DNA of 42,602 bases from an uncultured Candidatus Saccharibacteria bacterium (GCA_964610795.1 CAZSWG010000001.1:1-42602), one strand, 5' to 3'; numbered from the stretch's first letter, positions 1,280 to 42,602 are shown. The notes: a model not told the origin generated them from the sequence alone. Program-made: numbers and translations.

Positions 1280-1287
1280 ACCCAAAG

Positions 1288-1315: not shown

Positions 1316-2944
1316 TTACTGCAGGGTCTTTACGAGGTCTTTTCCTAATCCCCAATGAGGTACTTCTTCGCTTTCTACCCAGTTAATAAGAAGTTGTTGA
1401 TTCTTATATTGATCTTTTTCCCACCGCATACCTGTAGAATTAACACCAAAACGAATGTCTATATTAGGAGCCTCTGATTTCCACCTACCTAGGTTAAATT
1501 CATGTTTCCACGTAACTCTATGGTGAGTAAAAGGTTCAAACCCTGTGTTTCTGGTAAATTCTTCTTTCGTGAATCGTTCATATCGTTCTCTAAAATGGGT
1601 AATTGCAGCTTCCCGCCAAACACAAAGTCCGGATAGTTGGTTTACGTCATAATGTAAAGCATGGCCGTCTTCTCGTAAGTACCAGATATTTTGGTTATAG
1701 TAAAACGTATCTTTATCCGATGGAGTGAAATCAAAATGTGAAGGATGATAGAGTACGTCATGCTCACAAAAGAAAATTATATCCGACTTGCTATTTTCCA
1801 ACGCTCCCAGAATTTGTTTGAACATAGTGAGATACCCTCTTTTCAATGAAGGGAACCGCACGTTTTTAACTCCAAAGTCCATCTTTTTTAATGACGAACT
1901 GACTATAAACACACTTTTATCTTTCGTTACCTTTAAGAGTTGGTCCCGCACCGGCTTTGCTATTTTCTCGTTCAACTGATTGTCTGTATAAAATATCGCT
2001 CCCTTAGTAATTCCCCAATCGGGAGGATGAAACTTATCTAATATCCATTGGAATTTACGGGTAGCTTTGGGCCACTTATCTTTTTGAAACAACTCTCTTG
2101 AGAGTTCTCTATTTTCATTAACTTTGTTTTGAGGATTAGAATATGGGAAACCAAAATCCCCTCCACGAGTCCGGAAGCAATGCGCGTACCAAGTTTTCAT
2201 ATTGACTAAAACCTGCCCACCTGAAAGCCATGTTTTACAGGCGACCTCAACACCATTCTGTCCCCAGCTATTAAATTCTTCGCTAGTTAAATCTAATTCT
2301 AAATATTTTTGTTTCGTAACCATATAACATGATCCCTGTATGCTCATCGTCTCTCTATAATCTTTATTATAATTTGATCCTATAAGTACTCCTCTTTGAG
2401 CTTCTTCAGTTTTTGACCATCTGCCGTCGTATTGAAAATGCATCGTCTTATCAAATGTAAAAGCGTGAGTAGCAGGACTCTTTTTAGGAATCCAAACAAC
2501 ATCTTTTACTGTAGATTTACCACACTTTTCACACAATCCTGATGGGCTTTGATAACGCCTATGACCATCTGGACACACCCAATCAAAAATGTGCATATTA
2601 CGCATAATAGGAATTAAAGTTGTATCATCCCCTAATTCTTCCATTGCTTTAATCATCTTTAAATCAAAATCTTGGTCTACTGCACAATGGGCATCAAGTT
2701 TCATAACATATTTTGAATTAGATAATCTAACACCTTGATTAATAGCTCCACGCTGACCAACTGATACAGGATTATAAATTATAGCAACTCTATGATTAGA
2801 CTTAAAAGGTGGATCGGGAAGGAAACCATCTAGAACAGCTATTATTTCAGTCTGATCGCTAGTATGTTCCAGTACATCTTCTATGGTTCTGCCCATAAAC
2901 TCTTCATTTCTTCCTATAATTATTATAGAGAGCTTATATTGCAT
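1316..2944 (-). CDS. Two-domain glycosyltransferase: N-terminal GT-A (GT2/GT27-like) domain plus a C-terminal second transferase-like domain
   Basis: SIIIIGRNEE start and a DxH-type motif KLDAHCAV. WGQNGVEVACKTWLSGGQVLVNMKTWYAHCFR resembles the Gal/GalNAc-T motif and conserved His of GT27 enzymes. There is a Cys/His insertion, CPDGH...CEKCGK. The C-terminal ~230 aa carries CEHDVLYHPSHF. Confidence 0.75.
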   Translation of the reverse strand: MQYKLSIIIIGRNEEFMGRTIEDVLEHTSDQTEIIAVLDGFLPDPPFKSNHRVAIIYNPVSVGQRGAINQGVRLSNSKYVMKLDAHCAVDQDFDLKMIKAMEELGDDTTLIPIMRNMHIFDWVCPDGHRRYQSPSGLCEKCGKSTVKDVVWIPKKSPATHAFTFDKTMHFQYDGRWSKTEEAQRGVLIGSNYNKDYRETMSIQGSCYMVTKQKYLELDLTSEEFNSWGQNGVEVACKTWLSGGQVLVNMKTWYAHCFRTRGGDFGFPYSNPQNKVNENRELSRELFQKDKWPKATRKFQWILDKFHPPDWGITKGAIFYTDNQLNEKIAKPVRDQLLKVTKDKSVFIVSSSLKKMDFGVKNVRFPSLKRGYLTMFKQILGALENSKSDIIFFCEHDVLYHPSHFDFTPSDKDTFYYNQNIWYLREDGHALHYDVNQLSGLCVWREAAITHFRERYERFTKEEFTRNTGFEPFTHHRVTWKHEFNLGRWKSEAPNIDIRFGVNSTGMRWEKDQYKNQQLLINWVESEEVPHWGLGKDLVKTLQ

Positions 2945-3451: not shown

Positions 3452-4234
3452 TTATCCATTTCTTATCCTTTCATTATTTTTTAAAACATCTTTAATAAAT
3501 TCTGGAGAATAACCTGCTTTTTCCGAAGCCTTAACAATTGCGTTCAAATCCTTGGGCAAACACTTCCCGTCAAAACCCCGTCTATTTTTGTATACAGTCG
3601 TAAACATTTTTCCCTGCCGTTCATCTAAAACAAATCCCTCTCTCACAAGAGAGTAATCAACTCCAAACGCTTGTGCTATATTGAAAAACTCATTACAGAG
3701 GGTAACTTTAGCCGCAATAGCGCAATTTTCCATATATTTAATGAGTTCGCTTGTCGTTTCATCTACTTGATAGTACGTCTTCGTTGCCCCGAGGACAGGG
3801 TAAAAGATATCAAGTACCTCCTCCCTGTCCCCAGGGTCGCCCCCAATTATCATAAAAGAATGATGTTGAGGGTCAGTAGGATGAGGGTAAAGCCAAAAAG
3901 GTATATAATATCCGCCTTCACCAACGTACTCGGGACTGTGGCAAATTCGCTTTCCTGTAGCCTGTTTAAGCGACTTCGTAGTACCTGGAGGGATAGTTGA
4001 TTTAATAAGGATTAAACGAGTTTTAAGCCATCCTACGACTTCCTCTACTATGGAAATGTCGCAACTTCCATCCGGAAGCATAGGGGTTGGCACACAAACG
4101 ATAGCCAATTCACATTGATTAACTTCGTCGCGACTCTTTTCAATATTCCCATGTCTATCATAAAAAATAGAATCTGGAAAAATCTTTGCATACGCTCTTC
4201 CTACATACCCTCGTCCGATAATTGCTATTTTCAT
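3452..4234 (-). CDS. Short UDP-glucose/GDP-mannose 6-dehydrogenase-family protein
   Basis: MKIAIIGRGYVGRAYA (Rossmann GxGxxG), VPTP, KSTIPPGT, NPEF-like SPEYVGEG, and the catalytic-Cys motif DGKCLPKD (compare GGSCFPKD). At only 260 aa, the C-terminal nucleotide-sugar-binding domain seems to be missing. Confidence 0.7.
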   Translation of the reverse strand: MKIAIIGRGYVGRAYAKIFPDSIFYDRHGNIEKSRDEVNQCELAIVCVPTPMLPDGSCDISIVEEVVGWLKTRLILIKSTIPPGTTKSLKQATGKRICHSPEYVGEGGYYIPFWLYPHPTDPQHHSFMIIGGDPGDREEVLDIFYPVLGATKTYYQVDETTSELIKYMENCAIAAKVTLCNEFFNIAQAFGVDYSLVREGFVLDERQGKMFTTVYKNRRGFDGKCLPKDLNAIVKASEKAGYSPEFIKDVLKNNERIRNG

Positions 4235-4236
4235 AT

Positions 4237-4443
4237 TTATTTCAAAAACCTACTCCAAAAAATTATTCCGGAAGTAATAGCACATGAAACAGCAGTCCCG
4301 CCTACAACAAAAAGTGCCAAATTCTCACTTTTTCTTCTCATCTCTTGCATCGCAGAATCTGTCTCATTTATTGATATTTCCGGTTGTGGCACTACGTCAG
4401 CTTGCGGTATTGGCTTATCTCTATTTTCTGTCAACATAATCAA
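4237..4443 (-). CDS. Small single-pass membrane protein
   Basis: 68 aa with a hydrophobic segment LALFVVGGTAVSCAITSGIIFW. It is tightly packed between the flanking genes. Confidence 0.4.
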   Translation of the reverse strand: MIMLTENRDKPIPQADVVPQPEISINETDSAMQEMRRKSENLALFVVGGTAVSCAITSGIIFWSRFLK

Positions 4444-5296
4444 GCTCCTTATATAATGTACTAATGTTCTCTATGTGATATTTTTCTGCTTTTTTAAGAC
4501 ATCTTATAGAATATCCATCATAATATGACGGTGAAGCTCTTAATTCATCTAACGCTACTAAAAGTTCTGCCAAATCACCAACAGGAACATAACAGGTTTT
4601 CATCTCTTTGAAAGCCTTTTCATCAAGGGCAATAGTCGGTATGCCAAAAGAAGCGGCATTGACTAGCTTTAACGGATTAGATAAAATTTTCTTATACGGC
4701 CTCCAAACAATTTGAATATCTATCTTCTGGTAAAAATCTATAATATCCTGTCTTGTGAAAAATCTGGAATACTCAATGAGGTTCATTCCTCTTTCTGCCA
4801 GGAGTTGTTTTAGTTCTTTTGGAAGATACAAAAACGCTTTAGCTTCTCCGATAACACCCACCGTATTTACTTCTTTCCTTATCCTTTTAACCCGTTCAAA
4901 ATTGCAATGATGTTGAGGAATAAGTACAATTTTATTAGGAATTACTTTAGACATGACTTCGTAATCCGCTTCTGAACAAACAATGACTGTTACTTCGGGG
5001 TGCTTTTGGACTAATTGACCTAAATTATGACCGTCTATTATATCTAAATAGGGATTTCCCTCAAATACAAAATCATCGCCTTCTCGTACCATTGGTTTTA
5101 CATAAATACATACGCCATTCTCGTATCCGCTTGTCGGATTAAGATTCGCACCAATGTAACCGGCTATCTGATCTCCCCGGATCATAGAAGAAACACGCAT
5201 GAGATGGCCCGCTTTCCCCTTGAGTTTCCGACTGGGATCAAACTCTTGACTAGGATTGATATTAAGAAAAGCCCTTTTTGCGAATATAGAAATCAT
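4421..5296 (-). CDS. Putative GT-B-fold glycosyltransferase
   Basis: The C-terminal region IQIVWRPYKKILSNPLKLVNAASFGIPTIALDEKAFKE resembles the donor-binding half of GT1/GT4 enzymes. It sits inside the sugar cassette. Confidence 0.4.
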   Translation of the reverse strand: MISIFAKRAFLNINPSQEFDPSRKLKGKAGHLMRVSSMIRGDQIAGYIGANLNPTSGYENGVCIYVKPMVREGDDFVFEGNPYLDIIDGHNLGQLVQKHPEVTVIVCSEADYEVMSKVIPNKIVLIPQHHCNFERVKRIRKEVNTVGVIGEAKAFLYLPKELKQLLAERGMNLIEYSRFFTRQDIIDFYQKIDIQIVWRPYKKILSNPLKLVNAASFGIPTIALDEKAFKEMKTCYVPVGDLAELLVALDELRASPSYYDGYSIRCLKKAEKYHIENISTLYKELDYVDRK

Positions 5297-5772
5297 AAGA
5301 CAAAAATCTTTACTATGTCCGCGACCTTAAGTCTTCGTCCCGGGACATTCATTTCAACATTAAAATCTGGTATCAAGTTTATCGAATGCAAAAATTCATC
5401 TTTACTCACTATATAACGGTAAACATCTTGAATCTCGGCATCCCTGTTATTTTTCAAATAATTGATAAGTGTATATGGATTAGATCCCCATGTGATATTT
5501 CCTAACCTTATAATGCAATATTTAGGAAAATTCTCTTTTACCAATCCCTCCATCTCTCTTTTATGCTGAATATACCTTGTATTCCCGTAAAAAATAGACA
5601 GTGAGCTAAAATAGACAAGTCGTTGTGACCTGTTTTGTGCTAATAATAAATCCTTTTCTCTCTGATACTCAGATTCTCTGGTTTCAAGGCTGTTAGATAC
5701 CCCTGAAGCGAAATACAGCCTTCCTGGGTCATCCTGTAAAGCGCTAGCTATGTCTCCATGACCAACTATCAT
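5293..5772 (-). CDS. Short SDR-like protein (possible nucleotide-sugar epimerase/reductase remnant)
   Basis: The ATG at 5772 forms an ATGA overlap with the upstream stop. A YxxxK motif (YIQHK) lies downstream of a Ser-rich strand (FSSLSIF). The N-terminus reads IVGHGDIASAL. This is a weak call. Confidence 0.3.
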   Translation of the reverse strand: MIVGHGDIASALQDDPGRLYFASGVSNSLETRESEYQREKDLLLAQNRSQRLVYFSSLSIFYGNTRYIQHKREMEGLVKENFPKYCIIRLGNITWGSNPYTLINYLKNNRDAEIQDVYRYIVSKDEFLHSINLIPDFNVEMNVPGRRLKVADIVKIFVL

Positions 5773-6416
5773 GTCTTTACCCAAAACCAACTTCGGTATC
5801 TATCTCTAATTTCTCCTTCTTTGTAATCTAATGAACCCACTATAAAAAGGGGTAGCATCCTATAGCTCCACACATACGCTTCCAAAGCTCTTTTAACGTG
5901 AATCAGTTTCCTGAAAGGATAACGGGCGTAATCATGTCCTGACATAATTCCCCCAACCCTCACTTTCTTCAACCAATAGTGCAAATCGTTGGTAAAGTTT
6001 ACAAAGTCATGTCCCGCGTCAATATAGACAAAATCAAGTGAATTATCAGGAAAGTCCTTTACTGCGTCCATTGAATATTTTTTAACAAACGTATAATTCT
6101 TATAGGGAGCCATTCTTTTTTGAGCTTCTTTATAAATATCATCAAAGAATTGCTGTGTTTCTCCTCCTACAAAAACTCCTTCTGGATGCGCGTCAAGTTT
6201 CCACGCATCAATTCCATAGATGGTAGCTTGGGGATTAACTTTACATAAAACTTCAGAATACTTACCCTTAAATACCCCAATTTCTGCCCCTCTATTAAAA
6301 TTCAGTTCAGCAAACAACTCAGCCATATTGTCTCGGCCTATGTTTGGAATTTCAACAATATACTGGTTTCCAATATTAAGATTGTATTTTTTTACTATGT
6401 AGTCAAATGAGTTCAT
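5769..6416 (-). CDS. Class I SAM-dependent methyltransferase (Methyltransf_24 / sugar O-MTase-like)
   Basis: EIGVFKGKYSEVL (motif I), DFVYIDAGHDF and GGIMSGHDY are typical of this family. Confidence 0.7.
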   Translation of the reverse strand: MNSFDYIVKKYNLNIGNQYIVEIPNIGRDNMAELFAELNFNRGAEIGVFKGKYSEVLCKVNPQATIYGIDAWKLDAHPEGVFVGGETQQFFDDIYKEAQKRMAPYKNYTFVKKYSMDAVKDFPDNSLDFVYIDAGHDFVNFTNDLHYWLKKVRVGGIMSGHDYARYPFRKLIHVKRALEAYVWSYRMLPLFIVGSLDYKEGEIRDRYRSWFWVKT

Positions 6417-6483
6417 AACCCGAAAATACGTATTAGTATGTACATTGCTATAGAACCAATAAATGAACCCAAAATTAAATCTT

Positions 6484-6993
6484 TCATACCCAAAAATCTT
6501 CTAAATCAACAAAGTTTGATAGAACGGTTGCATGATTTTTGTCCTTATCCCAAATGATCCGGTACTTAAATAGTGAGTATATTTCCGAGTAGTGATATGT
6601 TTTATCTTTGTTACCGTTTGAGTCATGGATAATGATGTACTTTGCAAATTTAGCAAGCCTCTTAATCTCCTCAACACGGCTAGAATCGGGTGTTTGATCT
6701 ATCAAAACAACATCCCATGGCTTCTCAATCTTCGCGTCCGAGTATTTTTCAACAAAGTTTATTTCGTGTGTAGGACACTTATAACCATAATCTATAAAAA
6801 ATTGCATCCAAGATTTAGTATTCTCATAGGATACTAATTTACGATTAGAAAGATAACATTGATAATGAAGATAAGGAGTACTAAACACTCCCATTCCCAA
6901 CTCTAGGACATCTCCCGTAGTTTTAGACATCGCCTTAATAAGCGCTGGCAGATGAGTACCATAATTGCCGGATACGAACATTTTATATGCCAT
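6484..6993 (-). CDS. Class I methyltransferase-fold protein
   Basis: VLELGMGVFSTP (motif I-like), VVLIDQTPDS and IIIHDSN. A strong SD (GGAGGAAA) precedes the ATG. Confidence 0.45.
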   Translation of the reverse strand: MAYKMFVSGNYGTHLPALIKAMSKTTGDVLELGMGVFSTPYLHYQCYLSNRKLVSYENTKSWMQFFIDYGYKCPTHEINFVEKYSDAKIEKPWDVVLIDQTPDSSRVEEIKRLAKFAKYIIIHDSNGNKDKTYHYSEIYSLFKYRIIWDKDKNHATVLSNFVDLEDFWV

Positions 6994-7882
6994 TTTCCTC
7001 CTGCCATTTATCTAGTAACACTCTCCAATTTTCGGACCATGTAGGCATTAACTCAAATTTGTCTAAAAACCACTCAAAACTATGGAGATAGTTTCCTTTA
7101 TCTCCTACAAAATGTCTGGCTGCTATATCATAGGATTTAACCTCTTGAGCATGATCCATATGATAACCACGTTTGTTCCCTTGCTGATGGAGATGTGCAT
7201 ACCAGGTATTCTTATTGACCATTACTTTACCACCCATTAACCAATTCTTCAGTGCTAACCAGATTGGCTCCATTGCATGTCCGTAGGGGTCAATGTTTGG
7301 GAAGCCCCCCAATTCAAAATATCTATCTTTTGTCATAAACCAACCGGAACCGTGAATTTGTGGGGTTTCATCCACGCCAAGATGACTTGTAAGCCTCTCT
7401 TGAGTTCTCTCTGGCCAATGACCACCTGCCTTGAATCTAAAACCCTTTGGATCAGTGAAGGGACAACAGAGATAAAAGTAATCGTAAAACTCTTCTTTGC
7501 CATCTCTCATCTGAATACTCCAATCGTCTTTGATTATCTTGAAGCGGGGCATGACTATCCAATCTTCTTCCATATCAGCTTGGAGAATCTCATCAAAGCC
7601 TTTTCCGAAGGAACAGTGTGCATCAGACTTGTAGATATACTTGCCAGTAGCCATAGCGGCCATAGCGTTTATGTTGGTTTTGATGCCGACGACCGAAGGG
7701 AAGTGGACTACTTGTGTGTTAGAAACATGGGGGATATCTTCTACTCCATAACCACATTCACCATCAAACCCAACGATAACTTCATACTCTCCGGTCGTAT
7801 TCTCATAGATACTTTTAAGAGTCCGACTGAGGTTCTCTAATTTCTCCCCCCTCGCCGGTATTATTATTGACACTTTGCTCAT
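6983..7882 (-). CDS. GT-A glycosyltransferase, GT27-like paralog 2
   Basis: VSIIIPARGE, a DxH motif at KSDAHCSF, and LALKNWLMGGKVMVNKNTWYAHLH. It is collinear with the 1316..2944 N-terminal domain and with 8834..9724. Confidence 0.75.
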   Translation of the reverse strand: MSKVSIIIPARGEKLENLSRTLKSIYENTTGEYEVIVGFDGECGYGVEDIPHVSNTQVVHFPSVVGIKTNINAMAAMATGKYIYKSDAHCSFGKGFDEILQADMEEDWIVMPRFKIIKDDWSIQMRDGKEEFYDYFYLCCPFTDPKGFRFKAGGHWPERTQERLTSHLGVDETPQIHGSGWFMTKDRYFELGGFPNIDPYGHAMEPIWLALKNWLMGGKVMVNKNTWYAHLHQQGNKRGYHMDHAQEVKSYDIAARHFVGDKGNYLHSFEWFLDKFELMPTWSENWRVLLDKWQEENGI

Positions 7883-8409
7883 GGAATCCTTCCTATAATT
7901 ATCAATCTATCGTCGTATCTTTTTCCCACCTTCTTAACATTTACATAAAATCCAAGGAGCGCTTTTATTAACTCCTTGCCCACGCTCTCATCTGCCACAT
8001 CCTCAATTACATAAATAGTTTTTTTACTAAGCATGGGCATGACTGTTGCACAAGTAAAATACTGATCTTCCGGCTTGTGGCTTCCGTCATCAATAACTAA
8101 ATCAATGTCTGAACCAATTACGTCAATTAAATAAATTAGGTCTTTTTCTATCCCCTGATGACACAGATACGCTACAATACGATCTTCCTTTAAAAGACGT
8201 GTTTCATCAATTTCAGCCCCGTAAATCATTGCGTTAGGAAAGAAGTCTCTGAACATTCTCAAGCCCGCCCCCTCTCCAACACCTATTTCCAGAACCTTTT
8301 TAACCTCATTCCGCCTGTCTTTGAACAGACCATAATAAACAGGCAGGTAGTTATGCTTTCCTATCTTATCGGTGCCGTATTTTTTACCCAGCTTTTCTAA
8401 ATCGTTCAT
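7879..8409 (-). CDS. Class I SAM-dependent methyltransferase
   Basis: KYGTDKIGKHNYLPVYY followed by VLEIGVGEGAGLRMF and VIDDGSH. This is a signature common in sugar and polyketide O-methyltransferases. Confidence 0.7.
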   Translation of the reverse strand: MNDLEKLGKKYGTDKIGKHNYLPVYYGLFKDRRNEVKKVLEIGVGEGAGLRMFRDFFPNAMIYGAEIDETRLLKEDRIVAYLCHQGIEKDLIYLIDVIGSDIDLVIDDGSHKPEDQYFTCATVMPMLSKKTIYVIEDVADESVGKELIKALLGFYVNVKKVGKRYDDRLIIIGRIP

Positions 8410-8837
8410 TTTTGATCTTTGATTCTCTGCTTTAATCTTCCCGATCCAAAATTATGATCTCTCTTGTTGCGATAAATTTCTATACCTCGCTTTTCGCATA
8501 TATTCATTCCTGTCACCGGATGGTCCCTGGGTTCGTCTCCCATTATTCGTACATCTATATCAAGTGTACTTAAAATCTCTTTCAATTCTTCTTCGTTTTG
8601 ATAAACAATTATTTCATCAACATACTTACACGACTTAACCTGTATTTGTCTCTCTACAAGAGATTGGACAGGCTTATTTTTCCAAGGTCTATCTATTGAA
8701 GGATCAGTTTCAATACCAACCAATAAGTAGTCACAAACCTCTTTACACTCTTGAAGCATAACAGCATGACCCGCATGAAAAAGGTCAAAAGCACCGGCTA
8801 CAAATCCTACCCTATCGTTTTTTTGTATTTCTCTCAT
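8406..8837 (-). CDS. Cytidylyltransferase-family nucleotidyltransferase (TagD / HldC-RfaE domain II-like)
   Basis: GFVAGAFDLFHAGHAVML contains the HxGH motif. LLVGIETDPS ... KPVQSLVERQ is collinear with heptose-1-P adenylyltransferase and glycerol-3-P cytidylyltransferase. Confidence 0.8.
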   Translation of the reverse strand: MREIQKNDRVGFVAGAFDLFHAGHAVMLQECKEVCDYLLVGIETDPSIDRPWKNKPVQSLVERQIQVKSCKYVDEIIVYQNEEELKEILSTLDIDVRIMGDEPRDHPVTGMNICEKRGIEIYRNKRDHNFGSGRLKQRIKDQK

Positions 8838-9724
8838 TGTATCCAGCCCATATTTCTAATTTCTTCTTTCCAATTACTCGGCCAACTTGGCATACCGAGA
8901 AATTTATCATCTATAAACCATTCAAACCTGTAAACCATATTCGGCTCTCTATTGTTGAGCCAATGATCTGCTGACCAGCTAGAAGCCTCTATAGTACCTC
9001 CGGGGAATTTATAGAATCGCCCATAATGATTCCCCTTGTGGAGATGTGCATACCAAGTCTTCTTATTAACTTTCAATGCTCCGCCGCCGAACCATGTCTT
9101 AAACCCTATCTCCTGAGACTCCTGAGCGAACTGACCATAGCCTTCTTCATGTAGGCCATGAAGAAAATTATCAAAGTAGTCTTTAGTCATAAAATAGCAC
9201 GAACCCTGCATTGAAGGCGTATCATCAATTTCTTCTTTTATATATTCTTGCCATTTTTCTCTTTTCCACGGTACACCGTGCATACCATCATCGTGATCTT
9301 TACCTTTTCGGGGGAAATCTATATACATATAATCAATAGGATATTTATTATCAGTCCGTTCCTCTATTTTCCAATTTTCCGCATCCAGCGCATATCTTCT
9401 TGGTATCTGTACCCAATTATCCTTCAGGTGATTTTCAATGAGGATTTTTCCGAAGTTTGGGCCAAAAGCACAGTGATCGTCGGTTTTCATAATATATTTA
9501 CCTTTAGCCATAGCTACACAGGCGTTTATACCCGCCCTCAAACCCACAGGAGCGCTTGGATGGATATAGTGGACTCTTTCATCCTCTACAAGCGACTCGG
9601 GCCATTTCTCATCAATGTTGACTATAACCTCTAACTCACACCCAGCGTTTTTGAGTACATCTTCTATGGTTTTAGTAGTAAAAGGTGAATTTCTATTTGG
9701 TATAACAACCGATAACTCAATCAT
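8834..9724 (-). CDS. GT-A glycosyltransferase, GT27-like paralog 3
   Basis: LSVVIPNRN, a DxH motif at KTDDHCAF, SMQGSCYFMTKDYF, and GFKTWFGGGALKVNKKTWYAHLH. Confidence 0.75.
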   Translation of the reverse strand: MIELSVVIPNRNSPFTTKTIEDVLKNAGCELEVIVNIDEKWPESLVEDERVHYIHPSAPVGLRAGINACVAMAKGKYIMKTDDHCAFGPNFGKILIENHLKDNWVQIPRRYALDAENWKIEERTDNKYPIDYMYIDFPRKGKDHDDGMHGVPWKREKWQEYIKEEIDDTPSMQGSCYFMTKDYFDNFLHGLHEEGYGQFAQESQEIGFKTWFGGGALKVNKKTWYAHLHKGNHYGRFYKFPGGTIEASSWSADHWLNNREPNMVYRFEWFIDDKFLGMPSWPSNWKEEIRNMGWIQ

Positions 9725-10514: not shown

Positions 10515-11525
10515 TTATGGGAATGAAATGCTTGCACTCGGGCTTGCACTAGCTGATGGCGAAAGTGATCCAGATGGACTGTAGGACGCGCTGGCTGATC
10601 TTGACGCGCTGGCCGATGGCGATGCGCTCCCTGACGGGCTAAGAGAGGGAGAAGCCGACTTGGATGCACTGGCAGACGGACTCTTAGAAGCGCTTGCTGA
10701 CCTTGATCCGCTAGCACTACCAGATGCCGAGGCTGAAGCGCTTGCGGAAGCCGAGGCTGATTTTGAGGCTGATGCCGAGGCGCTAGCGCTGGCTGATCTT
10801 GACGCGCTGGCCGATTCCGAAGCAGACGGGCTGGCAGAACCAGATGGACTGAGTGATGCAGATACGCTGGCGCTTTCCGAGGCAGACGGACTAAGGGAAG
10901 CCGATGCACTAGCGCTTTCCGAGGCTGATGCACTGGCGCTTTCCGAGGCTGAAGGAGAAGCAGATTTGGAGGCGCTGGCGCTTTCCGAGGCTGAAGGAGA
11001 GAGTGATGGTGACGGGCTTGACGACTTTGATTCTGACTTTGAGGCGCTTTTGGAAGCAGAGGCTGACGGGCTAGCGCTCCCAGACGGCGAAACCGATGGA
11101 CTAACCGAAGGTGATACTGACGGACTTTCCGATGGTGAAGGACTTACCGATGGCGATGGCGAAGCTACTGCCGAACCTACTATACTCCAGATAGCGGCAG
11201 TTGATGTACCAGTATTCCTATACGCATTTCTGCCGGTTTTGGTAAGGTCATAGAAAATTGCACCTACTTTGAACCCCGAATCTCCTGTTGGAAGTGAATT
11301 ACCCTCTGCCTCTAAAATATTGTCAGTTGAAACATGATCTTCATTGGTCGCACTTGCAACTCGGTCATTATCCCATCGTAAAACCCTGTTTGTTCTATAC
11401 GGTAAAAGTGCCGTGAGAAAGTTTGCTTCAACAGTGGTCCGAAGTCCACTAGCTTTGGCCTCAATTCGTGCAAGCTCGGCTTGTGTATCTTTTGATAAAT
11501 CTGCTTTACGCTTAAATACTGCCAT
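10515..11525 (-). CDS. Head-associated protein with a ~120-aa globular N-terminus and a ~215-aa Ser/Pro/Ala tail (possible decoration protein)
   Basis: It lies immediately downstream of the major capsid gene. From residue ~121 to the C-terminus it is made of SPSxS/SASAS repeats. An AGGA lies 5 nt before the ATG. Confidence 0.65.
   Translation of the reverse strand: MAVFKRKADLSKDTQAELARIEAKASGLRTTVEANFLTALLPYRTNRVLRWDNDRVASATNEDHVSTDNILEAEGNSLPTGDSGFKVGAIFYDLTKTGRNAYRNTGTSTAAIWSIVGSAVASPSPSVSPSPSESPSVSPSVSPSVSPSGSASPSASASKSASKSESKSSSPSPSLSPSASESASASKSASPSASESASASASESASASASLSPSASESASVSASLSPSGSASPSASESASASRSASASASASASKSASASASASASASGSASGSRSASASKSPSASASKSASPSLSPSGSASPSASASRSASASYSPSGSLSPSASASPSASISFP
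10518..11165 (-). repeat. Coding Ser/Pro/Ala low-complexity array
   Basis: Same repeat class as 65-598, 37439-37642, 37962-40589 and 41220-42491. Confidence 0.9.
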
Positions 11526-18043: not shown

Positions 18044-18077
18044 AAAGAGTTTGGTTTATATAAGCATAATGATAAAG

Positions 18078-26613: not shown

Positions 26614-27075
26614 ATGGGAAGGATAAAAAGAGGAAGGTATTGGGCTATTCTTATTGGGAATAAATATGTTTTTGAACATAGATTGGTCATGGAAAAAAAA
26701 CTTGGTCGTCCGCTTACTCAAGATGAATGTGTAGACCATATTGACCGGAACCCTGAAAATAATAGTCCAGATAATCTTCGCCTTTTTTCTACACATGGTG
26801 AACATACGAAAGTAGCTCATGCAGATATATTTATTTCTCAAAGTATTGTAAGGAAAGGAATACACTTTTCTCCAAAAACAGAATTTAAAAAAGGCGACCC
26901 GAGAATTATGGGCAATAAATTTAGACTTGGTATTTCTTCTTGGAATAAGGGGAAAAAATGGTCTTTGAAACATAGAGAAAAACTGAAGGGTGCTCATAAA
27001 GGAAAACACAAACCTAACCTTACTTCTTTTAAAAAAGGAATGATTCCCTGGAATAAAGGTTTGAAAAAAACGTAA
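26614..27075 (+). CDS. Free-standing HNH endonuclease with NUMOD-like repeats
   Basis: EHRLVMEKKLGRPL..VDHIDRNPENNSPDNLRLF..HGEH, followed by WNKGKKWSLKHREKLKGAHKGK and IPWNKGLKK. It is on the plus strand, opposite to the surrounding genes. Confidence 0.85.
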   Translation: MGRIKRGRYWAILIGNKYVFEHRLVMEKKLGRPLTQDECVDHIDRNPENNSPDNLRLFSTHGEHTKVAHADIFISQSIVRKGIHFSPKTEFKKGDPRIMGNKFRLGISSWNKGKKWSLKHREKLKGAHKGKHKPNLTSFKKGMIPWNKGLKKT

Positions 27076-35256: not shown

Positions 35257-36210
35257 TTACTTTCCTAAAACGACATACCATAATACTCTTGATCCTCCCA
35301 AAGTCACATTTCCTCCCGAACTAGATTTCAATTGTATTTTTATAGTATGACTTCCGGATGCGATAGTAGAAACTATAGTTGTTGAAGACGTAGTAAAATA
35401 TTTTCCTGCCGTTTCTTCAATGGAAGGAGTAGACATTTCTCCTGCAACTTGAGAACCATCAAGGTCTATTATAGAAATAGGTGTAACTATATTTGTAGGA
35501 GATGAATCCGGGCTATAGCCTCTTACTGAAGCTCCTATCAAAACTTTTGATGATCTTGCCAGCGTAAATGATAAAGTCATATCTGTTACATCAACAAACG
35601 ACTGGTTTGTAGTAGAAAATGAAGCTGTTTGAGAAATGCTATCTGCTGCAAAATTAGCTGTACTTACTAATCCTGTTGCATCTATAATTGTGGTTTCAGT
35701 ATCATCTTTTACCGTGATATTGCCTTTAGTTACCACAACATTTCCTTCAGCATCAACGGTAAACTTATCATTGATATTTATACTTCCGCCCTCAATTTCA
35801 GCATCAGAGACTAAACTTCCTGCCCGTACTTCTCCCTTAAATACCGCATCTCCCGTAGTTCCGTCTATCGCAAGGGTAGTTATTCCTGCTATATCTCTTG
35901 CAGTTAATCCATTGGGTGTAATTCTTAAATCTCCCGAAATTCCTTTCTTAAAATCACCAACTTGAAACCCCCCGGATTGCTGAAGGTCAAATTCTTCAAG
36001 TATCTTGCGACTTCTGGTATTAAGCGCTGTACTTAATAATTCAACCGCTATTCTTTTTTTAGGAAAAGTTTTTTCTTTTGTAGCAGTTGGGGCATAGTTT
36101 CCTTCTCCCACAGCTTGAGCTTGTGATAGAACAGGCTGTACGACCTCTCCGGGAAAAGGGTTCTCGCTTACAATTTCCGGTTCAAAATTCTTATCTTTCA
36201 TATTACTCAA
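35257..36210 (-). CDS. Tail fibre / spike-like protein
   Basis: Beta-rich repeats (DLRITPNGLTARDIAGITTLAIDGTTGDAVFKG, NINDKFTVDAEGNVVVTKGNITV) and a C-terminal beta-sandwich-like end. It overlaps the upstream gene by 8 nt. Confidence 0.55.
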   Translation of the reverse strand: MSNMKDKNFEPEIVSENPFPGEVVQPVLSQAQAVGEGNYAPTATKEKTFPKKRIAVELLSTALNTRSRKILEEFDLQQSGGFQVGDFKKGISGDLRITPNGLTARDIAGITTLAIDGTTGDAVFKGEVRAGSLVSDAEIEGGSININDKFTVDAEGNVVVTKGNITVKDDTETTIIDATGLVSTANFAADSISQTASFSTTNQSFVDVTDMTLSFTLARSSKVLIGASVRGYSPDSSPTNIVTPISIIDLDGSQVAGEMSTPSIEETAGKYFTTSSTTIVSTIASGSHTIKIQLKSSSGGNVTLGGSRVLWYVVLGK

Positions 36211-37804
36211 AGTAGGTGATAATTCTGAAAATCTCCGGGGTAGTATTTCCGCTGGGAGTCATAATTATTCGCGGCTCGTATATGTCCATTTCTGCACCTA
36301 TTCTAAATACCGCTTTCTTTCCACCTGTTGAAGTAAATGCTTGGTTTCCATCTGCTGTATAAGCCTGTACCCAATCACCGGATTTATTCTTCTGATAATA
36401 GAAGTAAACACTACACCCTACGGGCAGTTCATCCATAAACACTTCAACACGGTCAAATTTTGTAATCTGTTCTGCTTTCTTAATCGGCGTCCTATATTCC
36501 AACCCTTCCCAGGTCCCCTGAGCCTTTGCAGTACTATCTACGGCCTTTACACCAAAATCATCCCCGTCTTTATATGAAGCTATAGTAGTTCCGTCTATAT
36601 TGACTACAGCGCCTATTTCGTCTACATCCAAGGCATACTCAAGATTCATGGTAAAAGGCTGTTCTTTATTTTTACGCCCGTAATAATAAAGACCATTTTT
36701 ACCTGAATCAGCGTCAAATACTCCCCAGATAGACATATTTCCCAATGATTGACGATCCACCCAGCTATCAGCTCCGAATACCCAATCAAATATCTCAATC
36801 TGGTCTACTTCGTTTGCTACTCCTCCCGGATTTACTCTGCCCCCGCCCGGGAATCTTTTAACAGGCATTGAATCAGTGAAGTTCGCAAAAAACAAATTTC
36901 CGTCATCTCCTATCTGAACAAGAGGATACTCACAATCTATTGCTCCATTTACTCCTTTATTGGGATAACCGGCAGGGTACGTACCGGAAACTGCCCTACC
37001 GTTGCGTTCAATAATGGTTTTTATTAGTCTTCCGGGAATTATGTCAAGTGCTTCATTAGTCCACGAATCGTCATATCCAACCAATGCGAGTTTAGATCCA
37101 TTAGCGATATAGTTTGCTCCGCCTACCTGTTTCATTGTGTGCCAGTCAGTACCCGTTAAGTTATCTGCTATTTCAGTTACATCACCCCAAGTTGACGAAC
37201 CAGGCAGAGGCTTTCGCTTTATTGAAGTAGCAGTAGCCCATTGAAGGTATGTTGTACCGCTATCTGAGGGTTTTTCTATAGCTCCTTTAATTGCCCCGTC
37301 TGCGTCCGTATAAACCATTCTTGTAAATCCATCGGGATACCGTCTATAAATATGCCCGGCGTTCCCAAATCCGTACGTGTTGCCATCCGATGCTTTTACC
37401 CAAGCGATAATCAAATCAACATATACATTATTAAGCCCTGCTGATGGAGAAAGAGAAGGACTAACCGAAGAAGAAGGTGAAGATGAAGCTGATGGGCTTA
37501 AACTTTTAGAGGCGCTTCTTGAGGCTGAAGCACTAGGTGATAGAGAAGGTGAAACTGATCCGCTGGGACTTTTAGAAGCACTAGTGCTGGCACTAGGCGA
37601 TTGGGATGAACTTTGCGAAACGGAGGCAGATTGTGAATGGCTGGTATCAAAAAGTCCTTCTTCTTTAAGTGCTTGTCCACAAGAAAGGGTATCATTTGCC
37701 TTGCGTATATCAATTCCGCTTGCGAACTTAAAAGCGCCACGGATACCTCTGTCATTGAATGACGAAATTCCGCCCTCAAAACTTTTAACTGTGTACGTTT
37801 GCAT
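36203..37804 (-). CDS. Tail-module protein with a Ser-rich array inserted after residue ~54 and a large beta-rich body
   Basis: 533 aa. Residues 55-122 read SQSASVSQSSSQSPSAS...SPSLSPSA. The remainder is Gly/Asp/Trp/Tyr-rich and propeller-like in character. Confidence 0.6.
   Translation of the reverse strand: MQTYTVKSFEGGISSFNDRGIRGAFKFASGIDIRKANDTLSCGQALKEEGLFDTSHSQSASVSQSSSQSPSASTSASKSPSGSVSPSLSPSASASRSASKSLSPSASSSPSSSVSPSLSPSAGLNNVYVDLIIAWVKASDGNTYGFGNAGHIYRRYPDGFTRMVYTDADGAIKGAIEKPSDSGTTYLQWATATSIKRKPLPGSSTWGDVTEIADNLTGTDWHTMKQVGGANYIANGSKLALVGYDDSWTNEALDIIPGRLIKTIIERNGRAVSGTYPAGYPNKGVNGAIDCEYPLVQIGDDGNLFFANFTDSMPVKRFPGGGRVNPGGVANEVDQIEIFDWVFGADSWVDRQSLGNMSIWGVFDADSGKNGLYYYGRKNKEQPFTMNLEYALDVDEIGAVVNIDGTTIASYKDGDDFGVKAVDSTAKAQGTWEGLEYRTPIKKAEQITKFDRVEVFMDELPVGCSVYFYYQKNKSGDWVQAYTADGNQAFTSTGGKKAVFRIGAEMDIYEPRIIMTPSGNTTPEIFRIITYFE
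37439..37642 (-). repeat. Coding Ser/Pro/Ala low-complexity array (short copy)
   Basis: Same repeat class as the other arrays. Confidence 0.85.
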
Positions 37805-37838: not shown

Positions 37839-40800
37839 CTAGTCTGGTGAGCTGGGTAACGCATCCCACTCCTTGTATTTTGCTTCATAATCATTACCTA
37901 ACTCTGAATACTTATCACCATAAGTGTTTCCAGTAGCTGAGTATTTATCAACATATTCTATAGGAGATTGGGATGGACTTGCACTTGGACTGGCGCTTGC
38001 TGAAGCGGAAGGACTTTTTGAAGCACTAGCCGATTTAGAAGCACTGGCGGAAGCACTTTTACTTTCAGAAGCTGAAACTGAAGCCGAAGCAGATTTAGAC
38101 TCACTAGCGCTAGCTGAGGCACTGGCAGACGCAGACTCGCTTTTACTTTCTGAAGCACTTGGGGAAAGGGATTTACTTTCGCTGGCGCTGGCAGACTTAC
38201 TTTCCGATGCCGAAACAGATTTAGATTCCGATGCAGATACGCTTGCTGACTCTGAAACACTGGCGGATTTAGATTCAGAGGCAGATGGGCTTAAAGAACC
38301 ACTGGGTGAAAGCGATGCACTTTCAGAAGCCGAGGCTGATCTTGAGACTGATGCACTAGCGGACCCACTTGCGCTAGGGCTTAAAGATGCCGATGCACTT
38401 GCACTTCCACTTGCTGAAGCGGAGGCGGAAGGGCTGAGTGAGGCAGAAGCTGAAACCGACCCTGAAGCTGATTCAGATGCACTGGCGCTCTTGCTCTCTG
38501 AGGCACTCGGAGATAGAGATTTGGATTCTGAAGGAGATTCGGAAGCCGACATAGATGCTGAAACACTTTTAGATTCTGATGCGGAAGGAGAAACACTTTT
38601 AGATTCTGATGGCGATTCAGAGGCACTTGCTGAAACGGAGACGGACTTACTTTCACTTGCGGATGGACTTAAAGACTTTGATTCACTAGCCGATTCCGAA
38701 GCACTGGCGCTGGCAGATCCTGATGCTGAAGGACTGACAGATGCTGACGCGCTGGCTGAAGGGGATAGAGAGGCACTAGGACTGAGACTGGCACTGGGAC
38801 TTAGGCTTTTGCTTGCTGAGGCCGATGGAGACAGAGATGCACTAGCACTTGCGCTGGGAGACAAAGAGGCTGAAGGTGAAAGTGAAGCCGATGGTGAAAG
38901 ACTAGCCGAGGGACTAAGAGACGCTGATGGACTCAAACTGGCGCTGGCAGAGACAGATGGAGATACGCTGGCGCTAGCAGAAGAGCTGGGAGAAACAGAT
39001 GCTGATGGAGATAGTGAAGCGGATGGAGAGAGACTGGCGCTAGGACTAAGGGACGTAGATAGGGATAAAGAGGCTGATGGAGATAAAGACGCCGATGGGG
39101 ACAAACTGGCACTAGCACTTGCGCTGGGTGACAAACTTGCCGATGCACTAGCTGAAGGCGATAGACTGGCAGATGGGGATAAACTGGAACTGGGACTGAG
39201 TGATGCTGATGGACTAAGTGACGCTGAAGGCGAGAGTGATGCACTAGGACTTAATGATGCTGACGGACTTAATGAAGCACTAGCACTCGCTGATGGCGAT
39301 AAAGACGCCGAAGCCGAAGCCGATGGACTTTGAGAAGCGCTCGGCGACAAAGAAGCCGAAGGTGATAATGAAGCAGATGGGGATAAAGATGCCGAGGGAG
39401 AAAGACTTGCACTGGCACTAGGAGATTCTGATGCAGATGCTGAAGCAGAAGCGCTAGCTGAAGCACTAGCAGATGGAGAAAGAGAGGCACTAGGACTTAA
39501 AGATGCCGATGGGGAGAGTGAAGCGGATGGACTTTGACTCGGACTTTCAGAAGGACTTTCGCTTAGACTAGCTGAAGCTGAAGCACTCTTTGATGCACTA
39601 GCACTAGGAGATAAGGAAGCACTAGGAGAAAGAGATGCGCTAGGCGAGAGAGAAGCTGAGGGAGATAACGAAGGACTTTCACTTAGTGATTCAGAGGGTG
39701 AGGCTGATTTACTAGCTGATGCACTTTCTGATGCACTGGGTGACTGAGAAGCTGATGGTGAAATACTAGCTGAAGGACTTAAACTAGCTGAAGGACTAAG
39801 AGAGGCACTGGCGCTAGCGGAAGGACTAGCGGAGGCAGAAGCAGAAGCCGATGGACTTTCAGACGCGGAAGGACTAAGTGAAGCACTTGGTGACAGTGAT
39901 GCACTAGCTGAAGCACTCGGAGATAAAGAAGCACTCTCGGAAGCCGATGGACTCAAAGAAGCAGAAGGCGACAAACTGGCACTTGGTGATAAGGAAGCGC
40001 TGGGACTTAGAGAAGGAGATGCACTAGCACTTGGTGACAGTGATGCACTAGCTGAAGCACTCGGTGACTGAGAGGCTGAGGGACTAAGCGATGCTGATGG
40101 TGAAAGCGATGCACTTGGGCTTAAAGATGCTGAAGCACTAGCGCTGGGGGAGAGAGATGCTGAAGCACTAGCGCTGGGACTCAAACTCGCCGATGGAGAT
40201 AAGGAAGCAGAGGGACTTAGAGAAGCAGAAGGAGACAAACTAGCACTGGCTGACGCTGAAGGGGACAAAGACGCTGAAGCTGAAACACTTGGACTAAGGC
40301 TAGCGCTTGGTGAGAGGGAAGCCGAAGGACTAAGAGAGGCTGAGGGACTAAGCGATGCTGATGGTGATAGTGATGCTGATGCAGAAGCACTGGGTGAAAG
40401 ACTAGCCGAAGCTGAGGCGCTAGGAGACAATGAAGCCGATGGACTCAAACTGGCTGATGGGCTGAGAGATGCTGATGGAGACAAGGAAGCCGAAGCACTG
40501 GCTGATGGGCTGAGTGAAGCACTAGCACTCGCTGATGGAGATAAGCTGGCGCTGAGGGAGAGAGAGGCGGAGGGGGAAACTGTAGATGCCGGAGAGAACC
40601 CTGCCGCTACTTGTGCCCAAGTATCGGAAGCGTCAAGGGTTTCACTCATTGTAGACACCCCAGCGGGGTTTACTGGTCCTTCGTGGGTGATGCAAGAAGT
40701 TCCCCCAAGAAAACCCGATGACCAGATAAAGTCGGCTCTTTCGGTCTGGTTCGCACCTGGAGAGTAATTCGTTCCGGCACCATTGTCCAAGCGATTAACA

Positions 40801-42602
40801 ATATCAACAACCCAACAATTATTGGCTATTGTTGTCACATCAACACTTGAAGTAGAAGAACCTCCTTGAGCCGTGTTACTGGAATCAAGGCCCCCAACTC
40901 CCTTTAAGGAAATAGCTGCGGCTCCGCTTCTGGTTGCCGAAGCCAGTGTAACTTCAACAGTATTTGACCCCGATGTCGGATTTAGTAAATACCACAACTC
41001 AGCAGTACAAACATTTCCCGGCTCGGTGGATACTTTTCTGGCGATAAGAGTAAGGGCTGTTCCGTTGTAAGTAATTCCGGAAACAGCCACATCATTCCTA
41101 ACCCCGACACCAACAATCAACACTCTATTCGCCCCAGAAGCTGTATGACTCCAAGAATAAACAGTTGCACTCCCTGGATTGGTTGTTGTTGTGTTGTCAT
41201 ACTCTATGACACCAAAACCAGCCGAGGGAGAAACCGATGGACTAACCGATGCTGAAGGTGAAGCTGAGGCCGATGGAGATAATGAAGCAGAAGGCGAAAG
41301 AGAGGCAGACGGGCTTACTGATGCAGAAGGAGACAGGGAGGCACTGGCAGATGCTGAAGGAGAAATGCTAGCAGACGCTGAAGCGCTTGGACTAAGCGAG
41401 GCAGAAGGAGATATGCTAGCGGATGGAGATAGAGAAGCCGATGGGCTAATTGAGGCTGATGGAGAAGCAGACGCACTGATTGATGCTGAAGGAGAAATAC
41501 TTGCACTGGCGCTTGCCGATGGAGATAGAGAAGCCGATGGGCTAATTGAGGCACTAGGACTCAGACTTGCCGATGGAGACAATGAGGCAGATGGTGAAAG
41601 TGAAGCAGAAGGGCTGGCACTGGGAGACACAGAGGCACTGGCGGAGGCAGATGGGGATAGGGAGGCACTAGAACTGATAGAAGCGCTTGGACTAAGGCTA
41701 GCGGAAGGCGATAATGATGCGCTTGCACTTGGACTTGCAGACGCACTTTCCGAAGCGCTACCACTAGCCGAAGCGGAAGCACTTGGACTTAATGAGGCAC
41801 TCGGAGATAGAGACGCAGATGGTGATATAGAGGCAGAAGGACTAAGAGATTTAGACTCACTCGGACTTTCGCTGGCAGAGGCGGATTTTGATTCACTAGC
41901 ACTAGCCGATGCTGATGGTGATAGTGAAGCCGAGGGACTTAAAGAAGCGGATGGAGAAAGACTAGCACTCGGACTTTGAGATGGTGATTCTGAGGGCGAA
42001 GCACTAGGAGATGCTGACTTACTTGCTGATGCTGATTCAGACGCGGAAGGACTTAAAGAAGCACTGGGAGATAGAGACGCGCTAGGTGATAAGGAAGCCG
42101 AAGGTGACAACGATGGAGATTCTGACGGACTCTCGGATGCCGAGGTAGATGCACTTGCCGAGGCAGATGCAGAAGCACTTGGACTCAAAGACGCTGATAG
42201 AGATAAGGATGCAGAAGCACTTGCCGATGGAGATAGACTTGCTGAGGCACTAGCCGAGGGTGACAAACTGGCGGATGGTGACAAAGAGGCGGACGGACTA
42301 AGGCTTGCTGACGGTGAAAGAGAAGCGCTTGGCGAAAGTGACGGGCTTGCGGAAGCAGACGCAGAGGCACTTTTTGACAAGCTTCCACTAGGACTTAATG
42401 AGGCAGACGGGGAAAGGGAAGCACTAGGTGATAATGAAGCGCTTGGTGATTGTGACGCGCTTGGGCTTACAGACGGACTGACACTTGAACTGCCTACTGC
42501 TACTGGCGCAAAAGAAGCGGCAACAAGCGCCCAGTCTCTACTCACACCTGTACTCCAATCAACCGTAGTAGCCCCAGCGGGAGATATTGGACCATATGTG
42601 CT
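37839..42602 (-). CDS. Giant (more than 1587 aa, 5'-partial) beads-on-a-string fibre protein: globular module, ~425-aa Ser/Pro/Ala array, globular module, ~875-aa array, Tyr/Lys-rich C-terminal motif
   Basis: The reading frame has no stop between 42545 and the window end at 42602, and the track's 'M' at 42545 is a GTG. A ~210-aa non-repetitive module lies at 40590-41219. TAG stop at 37839-37841. Confidence 0.85.
37962..40589 (-). repeat. Coding (S-P-S-A-S-L)n array, ~875 aa, with higher-order repeats and a charged SESKS-type C-proximal section
   Basis: Read directly from the translation. Synonymous codons vary between units. Confidence 0.9.
41220..42491 (-). repeat. Coding (S-P-S-A-S-L)n array, ~425 aa
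   Basis: Read directly from the translation. Confidence 0.9.

Follow-up and report, generated by a model that had tools for sequence, protein, structure and literature searches.

Serine-rich repeat proteins (SRRPs) such as GspB, Fap1 and Srr1/2 carry repeats that are densely O-glycosylated by dedicated transferases encoded beside the gene, and in SRRPs, as in mucins, glycosylation pushes the chains toward an extended regime. GT27-like polypeptide glycosyltransferases are, to our knowledge, functionally known so far from eukaryotes. Mycobacteriophages (Che8, Corndog, Myrna) are reported to encode glycosyltransferases that modify their own structural proteins (Freeman et al. 2023, as summarised in PMC12363180 and PMC12619734). 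Here we analyze a 42,602-nt stretch of DNA recorded as from an uncultured Candidatus Saccharibacteria bacterium (GCA_964610795.1 CAZSWG010000001.1:1-42602; hereafter the window), which ends within a giant gene (37839-42602, minus strand) whose product is dominated by two long arrays with Ser at alternate positions. On balance we lean towards the reading that the giant is a virion fibre of an uncultured groundwater phage, the Ser arrays of which would be O-glycosylated by the phage's own gene cassette to form mucin- or SRRP-like stalks.

Results

The giant open reading frame (ORF) is a single open frame that ends in a stop codon at 37839-37841. Reading from the N-terminus, it comprises the last 37 codons of module 1 (42492..42602), a bead severed at the window edge; array 1 (41220..42491), 424 aa built mostly of SPSASL and SASASL units; module 2 (40587..41219), an all-beta domain of 211 aa that belongs to the 'minor tail protein' type of phages; array 2 (37962..40586), 875 aa of alternating Ser; and a 40-aa Tyr/Lys/Asp-rich C-terminal end (37842-37961), a putative docking or oligomerisation element. 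These measurements, all on the minus strand, bear out a first-pass annotation of the same DNA, which had put the arrays at about 425 and 875 aa, the globular module between them at about 210 aa and a Tyr/Lys-rich C-terminal motif at 40 aa. The frame is unclosed at base 42602, and the window therefore cuts off the N-terminus of the protein; the GTG at 42545 is not its start. The complete gene is present in two other contigs, L082 and L085, where it encodes 1,766 aa and begins MAIAFDATASGND with module 1. Relative to these, the window is without the first 537 nt of the gene, and its ORF represents the 3′ 90%. The full protein has two paralogous beads (modules 1 and 2, 36% identity, E 8e-31), in keeping with the beads-on-a-string architecture first proposed for it. 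As seen at the junction in L082, the ATG lies 3 nt past the stop codon of a gene for a LamG-type fibre, and the giant gene ends 34 nt ahead of the gene for a conserved 533-aa structural protein, p533.

A look-up with this 533-aa neighbour recovered the same phage in several groundwater metagenome assemblies (contigs of 42.8-45.6 kb), drawn from runs SRR1658465, SRR2177362 and other samples. The 4,764 nt of the ORF are identical among the window, L082 and L084; L085, which comes from another run and places the gene in another genomic context, has a gene of equal length with six single-nucleotide polymorphisms (SNPs), all within module 1. This agreement strongly argues against mis-assembly. The opposing explanation, that the long arrays are an artefact of assembly or annotation through a collapsed or expanded repeat or a wrong reading frame, draws on the facts that every sequence is a short-read metagenomic assembly, that scaffold L083 contains a 10-N gap plus a frame break, and that automatic gene callers predict antisense ORFs within the array. 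We regard it as hardly credible, because no exact DNA repeat exceeds 39 nt, so that reads can bridge the repeats, because the Ser frame is continuous and in frame with two modules having thousands of homologues, and because still longer arrays exist in relatives. The concern over an assembly artefact, raised when the array was first noticed, is largely answered by several assemblies from different runs that agree base for base. The antisense frames are long, open and rich in L, A, E, D and G (37924-39333 and 41179-41979, plus strand). Public gene callers take these ORFs (469 aa and 257 aa in the L082 gene table) over the true Ser frame, which is why protein databases lack the real protein.

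Judged by comparison with L082, the window represents a genome of ~43.1 kb, circular or permuted, that has been cut open within module 1 and is short of 539 nt. Circular closure exactly at the window ends was rejected, since those 539 nt are absent between base 42602 and base 1. An exact DNA search of the window in IMG/VR gave no match. At L085:1-4662 the giant gene, with its six SNPs, stands behind an integrase and unrelated genes, not behind the LamG gene and the glycosyltransferase gene GT2_542 described below. This change of neighbours indicates that recombination had a breakpoint at the gene's 5′ end, and L085 is possibly a temperate relative.

Serine fills every one of the 212 alternate positions of array 1, and 436 of the 437 of array 2 (648/649 in total). 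The arrays are 50% Ser, 12% Pro and 9% Leu, with no aromatics and three Thr in 1,299 residues; S, A, P and L together account for 92%, and the non-Ser positions are taken by A, P and L, followed by E, K, V and I. Over the last ~275 aa of array 2, E and K go up while P and L go down. All six Ser, all four Ala and all four Pro codons are used, and the G+C content of the arrays is 0.52-0.53 versus about 0.35-0.45 in the remaining window, a consequence of the Ser/Ala/Pro codon composition. The alternate serines, the dominance of Ser, Ala, Pro and Leu, the mixed synonymous codons, the charged shift toward the C-terminus and the G+C-rich repeat DNA had all been described in the first-pass annotation and hold on exact counting. 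Horizontal transfer was considered as an explanation for the high G+C and rejected, since G+C follows the codons and arrays are shared by the lineage as a whole.

The pattern in the arrays is one of peptide rather than of DNA. The longest exact peptide repeat is 71 aa, as against 35-39 nt for the longest exact DNA repeat, and Tandem Repeats Finder, a check suggested at the outset, returned only weak, short repeats of 18-36 nt. In the 25 pairs of peptide repeats that agree exactly over 30 aa or more, 25% of codons are identical versus 24% expected from codon usage, and nucleotide identity is ~60%. Codon identity at the chance rate leaves recent tandem expansion unsupported, and recent tandem duplication was rejected on this test. 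The higher-order unit from which such expansion had been deduced (16 residues followed by (SPSASL)3-4) does recur, with four occurrences, all in array 2, so that the observation stands and its interpretation does not. Repeated k-mers slightly exceed those of synonymous shuffles and are the sole trace of a duplication history. Taken together, these comparisons of the sequence with itself argue that the synonymous sites are randomised and that the peptide pattern is under selection, as had been proposed from the combination of uniform composition and limited DNA repetition.

Array periodicity is strict at two residues, and the dominant spacing of Pro is six residues. Pro is found at -3, -1, +1 or +3 of 83% and 73% of the Ser in the two arrays; shuffled arrays give 71% and 62.5%, and none of 1,000 shuffles reaches the observed values. 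These are the positions at which polypeptide-GalNAc-transferases (GalNAc-Ts, ppGalNAc-Ts) prefer Pro (PMC9950641). Such periodicity might also be expected if the arrays folded into a regular fibre, silk-like beta or polyproline-II and possibly trimeric, nucleated at the C-terminus to give a rigid shaft. We hold this to be quite improbable: array length varies more than tenfold among orthologous fibres, and the non-Ser positions accept A, P, L, E, K, V and I. A regular fibre is, besides, compatible with glycosylation, which makes it a variant of the glycosylated stalk more than a true alternative. At 0.36 nm per residue the contour lengths of the two arrays are ~315 and ~153 nm; the computed root-mean-square end-to-end distances of the corresponding naked coils are only ~27 and ~18 nm.

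The case for glycosylation comes from an 8-kb cassette that lies within the late structural operon, on the same strand as the giant gene. Three of its products are ppGalNAc-T-like glycosyltransferases: GT2_542 (1316..2944, minus strand; Pfam GT2), encoded directly upstream of the fibre genes, and the smaller GT-A enzymes GT2_299 (6983..7882, minus strand) and GT2_296 (8834..9724, minus strand), the latter with a DxH motif (K-T-D-D-H-C). A profile of the 296/299-aa family (A4) matched GalNAc-T1 (1xhb) in the PDB with E 1.6e-16 over profile positions 3-260, and also GalNAc-T2, T4, T9, T10 and T12, covering the whole catalytic domain. D82 and H84 of the DxH motif are invariant in the profile, and ordinary GT2 enzymes match it over the first ~90 aa only. 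Single-sequence searches gave the same GalNAc-T matches. Sequence identity to the GT27 enzymes is only about 15-19%. The Gal/GalNAc-T motif region (WGGENxExSFRxWxCGG) aligns as QExQEIGxKTWLxGG and WGQNGVEVACKTWLSGG, with several consensus residues differing.

For GT2_542 the sole sequence match in the PDB was GalNAc-T3 of Toxoplasma gondii, entry 8uhv (PMC11074326). Its AlphaFold2 model (pLDDT 83.7) retrieved only ppGalNAc-Ts among the top 50 PDB hits in Foldseek, with ~350 aligned columns. The family also has invariant C124, H128, C138 and C141 in a Zn-ribbon-like insert in the GT-A domain, and a conserved, unassigned C-terminal domain of ~230 aa, which contains an F-x-E-H-D-V-L-Y-H motif and could be a second catalytic or a substrate-binding domain. 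Pfam found no ricin-type lectin domain in the cassette transferases, two of which measure only 296-299 aa. GT2_542 has over 4,000 homologues, many of the closest on contigs of ~33-49 kb; GT2_542 and GT2_296 gave no tblastn match in 50,697 GenBank phage records and matched no PHROG family. These profile and model comparisons make the three GT-A enzymes of the cassette homologues of the GT27 catalytic domains. Their transfer activity is predicted from that homology.

Transferases and arrays occur together well beyond this genome. IMG/VR yielded 80 loci with a GT2_542 homologue (42-76% identity), 65 of them with at least 1.5 kb of downstream sequence, and in 55 of these 65 a Ser array begins no more than 3 kb downstream on the same strand, often in a giant protein. 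Loci picked by the module alone have such arrays in 4 of 81. Still larger array proteins stand downstream of the GT2_542 homologue in L257, L247, L223, L215 and L227; examples are a protein of 2,253 aa with an array of 1,556 aa, the upper limit on both counts, and one of 1,355 aa with an array of 1,308 aa, so the giant of the window is not the extreme of its family. The order capsid gene, Ser-tailed protein, cassette was found in 29/29 relatives with at least 5 kb of flank. In two further loci, L027 and L003, the bead gene is directly preceded by homologues of GT2_542 and the 296/299-aa enzymes, with a methyltransferase homologue as well in L027, and in the sequence available neither locus shares detectable head genes with the window. 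Conversely, Acidobacteriota prophage relatives whose capsid protein is 51-59% identical have neither arrays nor cassette. By the evidence of gene neighbourhoods, the transferase-array association is strong.

The beads and the C-terminal end suggest where in the virion the giant might act. Module 2 matches phrog_553 and phrog_2106, both annotated 'minor tail protein' (E 2.3e-12 and 2.6e-11). Its AlphaFold2 model is all-beta with pLDDT 92.5, and its matches in BFVD have query-normalised TM-scores mostly of 0.65-0.9, up to 0.90 for uncultured-phage proteins and ~0.6-0.8 for minor tail proteins of Mycobacterium and Gordonia phages. A fold search of the PDB gave only poor matches, with TM-scores below 0.3 (PRD1 P3), and the module is therefore without a solved structural relative. 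The family is large (26,555 cluster representatives in a full hmmsearch). It includes stand-alone homologues of 220-260 aa in metagenomes and cell-surface giants with up to five copies joined by structured domains, and it is common among cell-surface proteins carrying signal peptides. The modules of the giant would be beta-sandwich binding modules of this kind.

The C-terminal 40 aa hold three 11-aa Y-x-D-K-Y-S-x-x-G-N-x repeats. Fibre genes whose N-terminal domains are unrelated (L168-L179) keep this motif at the C-terminus, as does the LamG paralogue in the window, so that what was first described as an anchor is the conserved end of an entire fibre family. In the 13 relatives of p533 examined, one to three fibre genes lie immediately upstream of p533. 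Their N-terminal domains differ, being LamG in 4 of the 9 scanned and the module, beta domains or Gly-rich regions in others; their arrays range from 84 to 1,064 aa; and they end in two to four 11-aa Y-x-[DN]-K-Y-[ST]-x-x-G-N-x repeats. Four other loci (L027, L003, L006 and L040) follow the same logic with other Ser-rich repeats and phage-specific C-terminal motifs of their own. The C-terminal motifs of L003 and of L189, a large contig discussed below, appear to resemble the W-x-G-x-x-W hairpin of a foldon such as that of T4 fibritin, which would suit the reading of the arrays as a regular fibre. A constant C-terminus combined with a swappable N-terminal head is the pattern expected of a fibre docked by its C-terminus, and we infer this orientation for the giant. 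A search of 5.8 billion proteins with the 46-aa C-terminal motif found no match, probably because such genes are mis-called in the databases. A role of the arrays as flexible spacers or brushes, proposed when they were first noticed, is consistent with their composition and with lengths of 84 to more than 1,500 aa in relatives.

Several points weigh against a glycosylated fibre. Eukaryotic GalNAc-Ts prefer Thr, and the arrays are almost Thr-free (3 in 1,299). The phage enzymes are without the ricin-type lectin domain of GT27, and the cassette could modify host envelope polymers or some other target. Ten of the 65 GT2_542 loci have no array in the flank, the S/T-rich bead proteins of L006 and L040 are without such transferases in the sequence available, and the loci counted for linkage are related by descent and do not represent independent events. 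As to docking, the putative C-terminal role is deduced from the pattern of conservation, the motif search found nothing, and the putative partner p533 is without a recognisable fold relative by sequence.

Some of these points would suit a different virion, one in which the arrays are unmodified Pro/Ala/Ser random coils acting as entropic tethers or brushes and the cassette serves a host surface polysaccharide or another phage component, for example in superinfection exclusion or serotype conversion. The composition of the arrays, 92% S/A/P/L with no aromatics, recalls PAS-like (Pro/Ala/Ser) polypeptides, which behave as hydrated coils, and the S/T-rich bead proteins of L006 and L040 occur, in the sequence available, with no transferases nearby. 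Phage glycosyltransferases, moreover, often target DNA or host O-antigen (PMC12619734). We nevertheless judge such naked coils unlikely. The transferases resemble GT27 across the whole catalytic domain and not polysaccharide or DNA transferases, and the cassette is inside the late structural operon, with GT2_542 by the fibre genes in 55 of 65 loci. Arrays and cassette are jointly present in the lineage and jointly absent in the prophage relatives, and 648 of 649 Ser together with a Pro spacing that GalNAc-Ts favour is more constraint than a plain spacer needs. It is the presence of a GT27-like cassette beside the arrays that makes a naked PAS-like random coil the less likely state, and the glycosylated fibre remains the reading that we favor.

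The genes of the window are nearly all on the minus strand, in the order terminase, portal, scaffold, major capsid, a 336-aa protein, the 8-kb cassette and then the fibres, with the LamG fibre and the giant followed by p533, more structural genes, a 1,839-aa LPD38 protein and the lysis genes. The first-pass annotation had overlooked the truncation of the giant gene by the window, three further array proteins and the cassette. The first of these array proteins is the LamG/ConA-like fibre paralogue (2..1285, minus strand; Laminin_G_3, E 4e-26), with an array of ~185 aa (about 74-625) and a C-terminal end YVNKYS..GNTYMDKYTSTL (about 5-73). The second is the 336-aa protein that adjoins the major capsid gene (10515..11525, minus strand), a putative head hair or decoration protein made up of an N-terminal domain of ~118 aa and an alternating-Ser tail of ~218 aa (10518-11171) ending ISFP. 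At least 139 relatives of the capsid protein were found in IMG/VR, and 80 were kept as loci (65-84% identical); nearly every locus that continues beyond the capsid gene has, as its next gene, one encoding a Ser array of 72-384 aa with a conserved S-F-P tip.

The third array protein is p533 itself (36203..37804, minus strand), encoded directly downstream of the giant, in which a 68-aa alternating-Ser insert (about 37439-37642) follows a 55-aa N-terminal domain. Twelve homologues cover the insert, each with a length of 66-68 aa, and in the alignment of the 12 no Ser or Pro position of the insert varies. The p533 array thus behaves as a fixed-length linker, unlike the fibre arrays, which vary more than tenfold. 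A p533 profile gave only a low-complexity match to an SR protein in the PDB, and neither Pfam nor PHROGs returned anything for p533, the capsid-adjacent protein or the portal.

In addition to its three GT-A enzymes, the cassette has further ORFs (3452..8837, minus strand), including a nucleotide-sugar dehydrogenase-like gene (3452-4234), a GT-B-like gene (4421-5296; the sole GT-B-like hit, Glyco_trans_1_4 at 24.5 bits, under the Pfam cut-off of 27), two Methyltransf_24 genes (5769-6416 and 7879-8409), a cytidylyl/adenylyl-transferase (8406-8837) and some unassigned ORFs, all on the minus strand. Two HNH_3 endonuclease-like ORFs run on the plus strand, against the gene flow (2947-3444 and 26614-27075; Pfam, L082 gene table); one of them is inserted in the cassette between GT2_542 and the dehydrogenase-like gene, and both look like homing endonucleases. 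The scaffold-like protein (12840-13646, minus strand) contains a Pro/Glu/Thr/Asp low-complexity run, DPEPEPEPTPDPEPTPDPEPEPEPEP, with an 18-nt tandem repeat at 13482-13561, and is a second, unrelated low-complexity element of the structural block. The 1,839-aa protein (27561-33080, minus strand) has an LPD38 'large polyvalent protein' domain, matches phrog_9854 strongly (E 9e-126) and is probably an ejected internal virion protein. A tRNA-like gene with a four-base anticodon, tgcc, called by ARAGORN at 24612-24687 (minus strand) was set aside as a probable false positive; a whole-window Rfam scan at the gathering threshold found neither a tRNA nor any other family.

Variants of GT2_542 of ~800 aa occur on contigs of 145-155 kb. 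One of these, L189 (145.8 kb), carries Rho, TatABC, a sortase and a similar cassette, followed directly by a 1,887-aa bead protein (12575-18235, plus strand), in which two domains are module-like and the arrays measure 70, 490 and 396 aa. L188 and L190 resemble L189, and one copy is labelled Candidatus Microgenomates. The gene content of these loci suggests a cellular, possibly Candidate Phyla Radiation (CPR)/Microgenomates, version of the same system. Among close homologues, the labels of metagenome-assembled genomes at NCBI are Woesebacteria, Curtissbacteria, Microgenomates and, in one case, Thermodesulfobacteriota. A CPR/Microgenomates host for the phage is plausible and weakly supported, the assignment being weak because phage contigs can be mis-binned.

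The cellular loci bear on the question of whether the giant belongs to the virion. It could instead be made late and set free at lysis, or work in the cell or at its surface, perhaps as a decoy or matrix glycoprotein with host surface glycans as its target or progeny to shield, and the occurrence of similar transferase and bead loci on large contigs with cellular genes (Rho, TatABC, sortase) fits such a role, as does the frequency of the module family in signal-peptide-bearing cell-surface proteins. Even so, we find a non-virion protein improbable. The full-length N-terminus, MAIAFDATASGND, opens directly with the module, and no hydrophobic leader typical of a signal peptide was seen there on inspection, which was the only means by which this was judged. 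The gene is located between head and tail genes on one strand, 3 nt after the LamG paralogue and 34 nt before p533, its module matches phage minor tail proteins, and a variable distal domain with a conserved end is typical of phage fibres.

Discussion

The anatomy of the giant gene, its recurrence in several assemblies, the conservation of its parts, the homology of the transferases and their linkage to the arrays lead us to propose the following course of events for the glycosylated fibre. Late in infection, the Ser-array proteins would be made and then glycosylated in the cytoplasm by the GT27-like enzymes of the phage, the rest of the cassette adding further sugars and methyl groups. The giant would be docked or oligomerised on the particle via its C-terminal Y-x-D-K-Y motif, so that the 875-aa array would form the proximal stalk and, moving outward, module 2, the 424-aa array and module 1 would follow. 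Glycosylation would render the arrays stiff, extended, hydrated and protease-resistant, and the long tether would widen the capture radius of two lectin-like heads. In the same way, the Ser-tailed head protein may provide a glycan brush, or hairs, on the capsid.

More broadly, and tentatively, it can be suggested that a large, uncultured lineage of phages from groundwater and sediment has a complete O-glycosylation system of mucin type for proteins, which some cellular genomes, possibly CPR/Microgenomates, appear to share. The virions would then be clothed in 'viral mucins', consisting of capsid hairs and of fibres hundreds of nanometres long when extended, with swappable lectin-like heads, and phage and host may share a surface chemistry. 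Literature searches for the peptide motifs, serine-rich phage fibres, GT27 in phages and CPR phages found no description of such a phage system, and there is a realistic chance that it is a first mucin-type system from a virus or a prokaryote.

Should the arrays prove to be glycosylated, the phage would have a glycoprotein system of mucin/SRRP type on a scale undescribed for any phage, with ~1,300 acceptor-rich residues in a single protein and four array-bearing structural proteins in a single genome. Polypeptide-GalNAc-transferase-like enzymes would extend to viruses of prokaryotes, which would bear on the origin of the eukaryotic mucin-glycosylation family; the key transferase has thousands of environmental homologues and none found in sequenced phage isolates. 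A concrete model would also be at hand for phages whose hosts are hard to reach, in which long tethers, stiffened by glycans and bearing exchangeable lectin-like heads, widen the capture radius and shield the particles in sediment. There is a practical issue as well, in that the array genes are missed by gene callers and the family is largely invisible in protein databases. A (SPSASL)n peptide and the three small GT-A enzymes constitute a directly testable in vitro system.

Among systems already described, SRRPs have a similar layout. In both, a shorter and a longer alternating-Ser region flank a globular binding region (here 424 and 875 aa around a 211-aa module), the long repeat region is, or here would be, a stalk from the binding region to the C-terminal anchor, and the charged SASESKSAS part of array 2 resembles SRR2 sequence. 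They differ in that the phage transferases are GT-A and GT27-like, while SRRPs use the GtfA/GtfB O-GlcNAc pair, and in that the repeats of the giant hold regular Pro and Leu and are phage-encoded, within a structural operon. On inspection the giant is without the long signal peptide of SRRPs, no accessory Sec genes (SecA2/SecY2) were found in the window, and an LPXTG anchor is absent from the C-terminal end of the giant.

The likeness to eukaryotic mucin-type O-glycosylation by GT27 is one of enzymes and putative substrates. The phage GT-A enzymes match full catalytic domains, including DxH, and the candidate substrates are tandem arrays of kilo-residue scale, rich in Ser and Pro, in which Pro stands where GT27 enzymes prefer it. 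Unlike GT27 enzymes, those of the phage have neither a ricin-type lectin domain nor a membrane anchor, and their identity is ~15-19%. Mucin domains have tandem repeats rich in Ser, Pro and Thr; the phage arrays are 50% Ser and 12% Pro but hold virtually no Thr, and they belong to a prokaryotic, viral system.

Mycobacteriophages are likewise reported to combine phage-encoded transferases with structural proteins bearing acceptor extensions, at the C-termini of head and tail proteins. There, the glycans are on short C-termini of capsid and tail-tube subunits, whereas the candidate arrays here span 68-875 aa on accessory fibre and hair proteins, and the transferases of the window are without a counterpart in the GenBank phage records searched. 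The module joins the minor tail proteins of actinophages (PHROG 553, 2106) in one domain family by sequence and predicted fold; in actinophage and cell-surface proteins, however, modules are linked via structured or Gly-rich segments and not via long alternating-Ser arrays. Designed PAS polypeptides share the dominance of P, A and S, from which a hydrated, non-globular chain is expected. The arrays of the giant differ from them in being natural, strictly periodic in Ser, 9% Leu, charged at one end and linked to glycosyltransferases, and are probably not naked coils. By analogy, then, SRRPs and eukaryotic mucins with GT27 would be the closest functional analogues of the system proposed here, and the glycosylation of mycobacteriophage virions its closest phage precedent.

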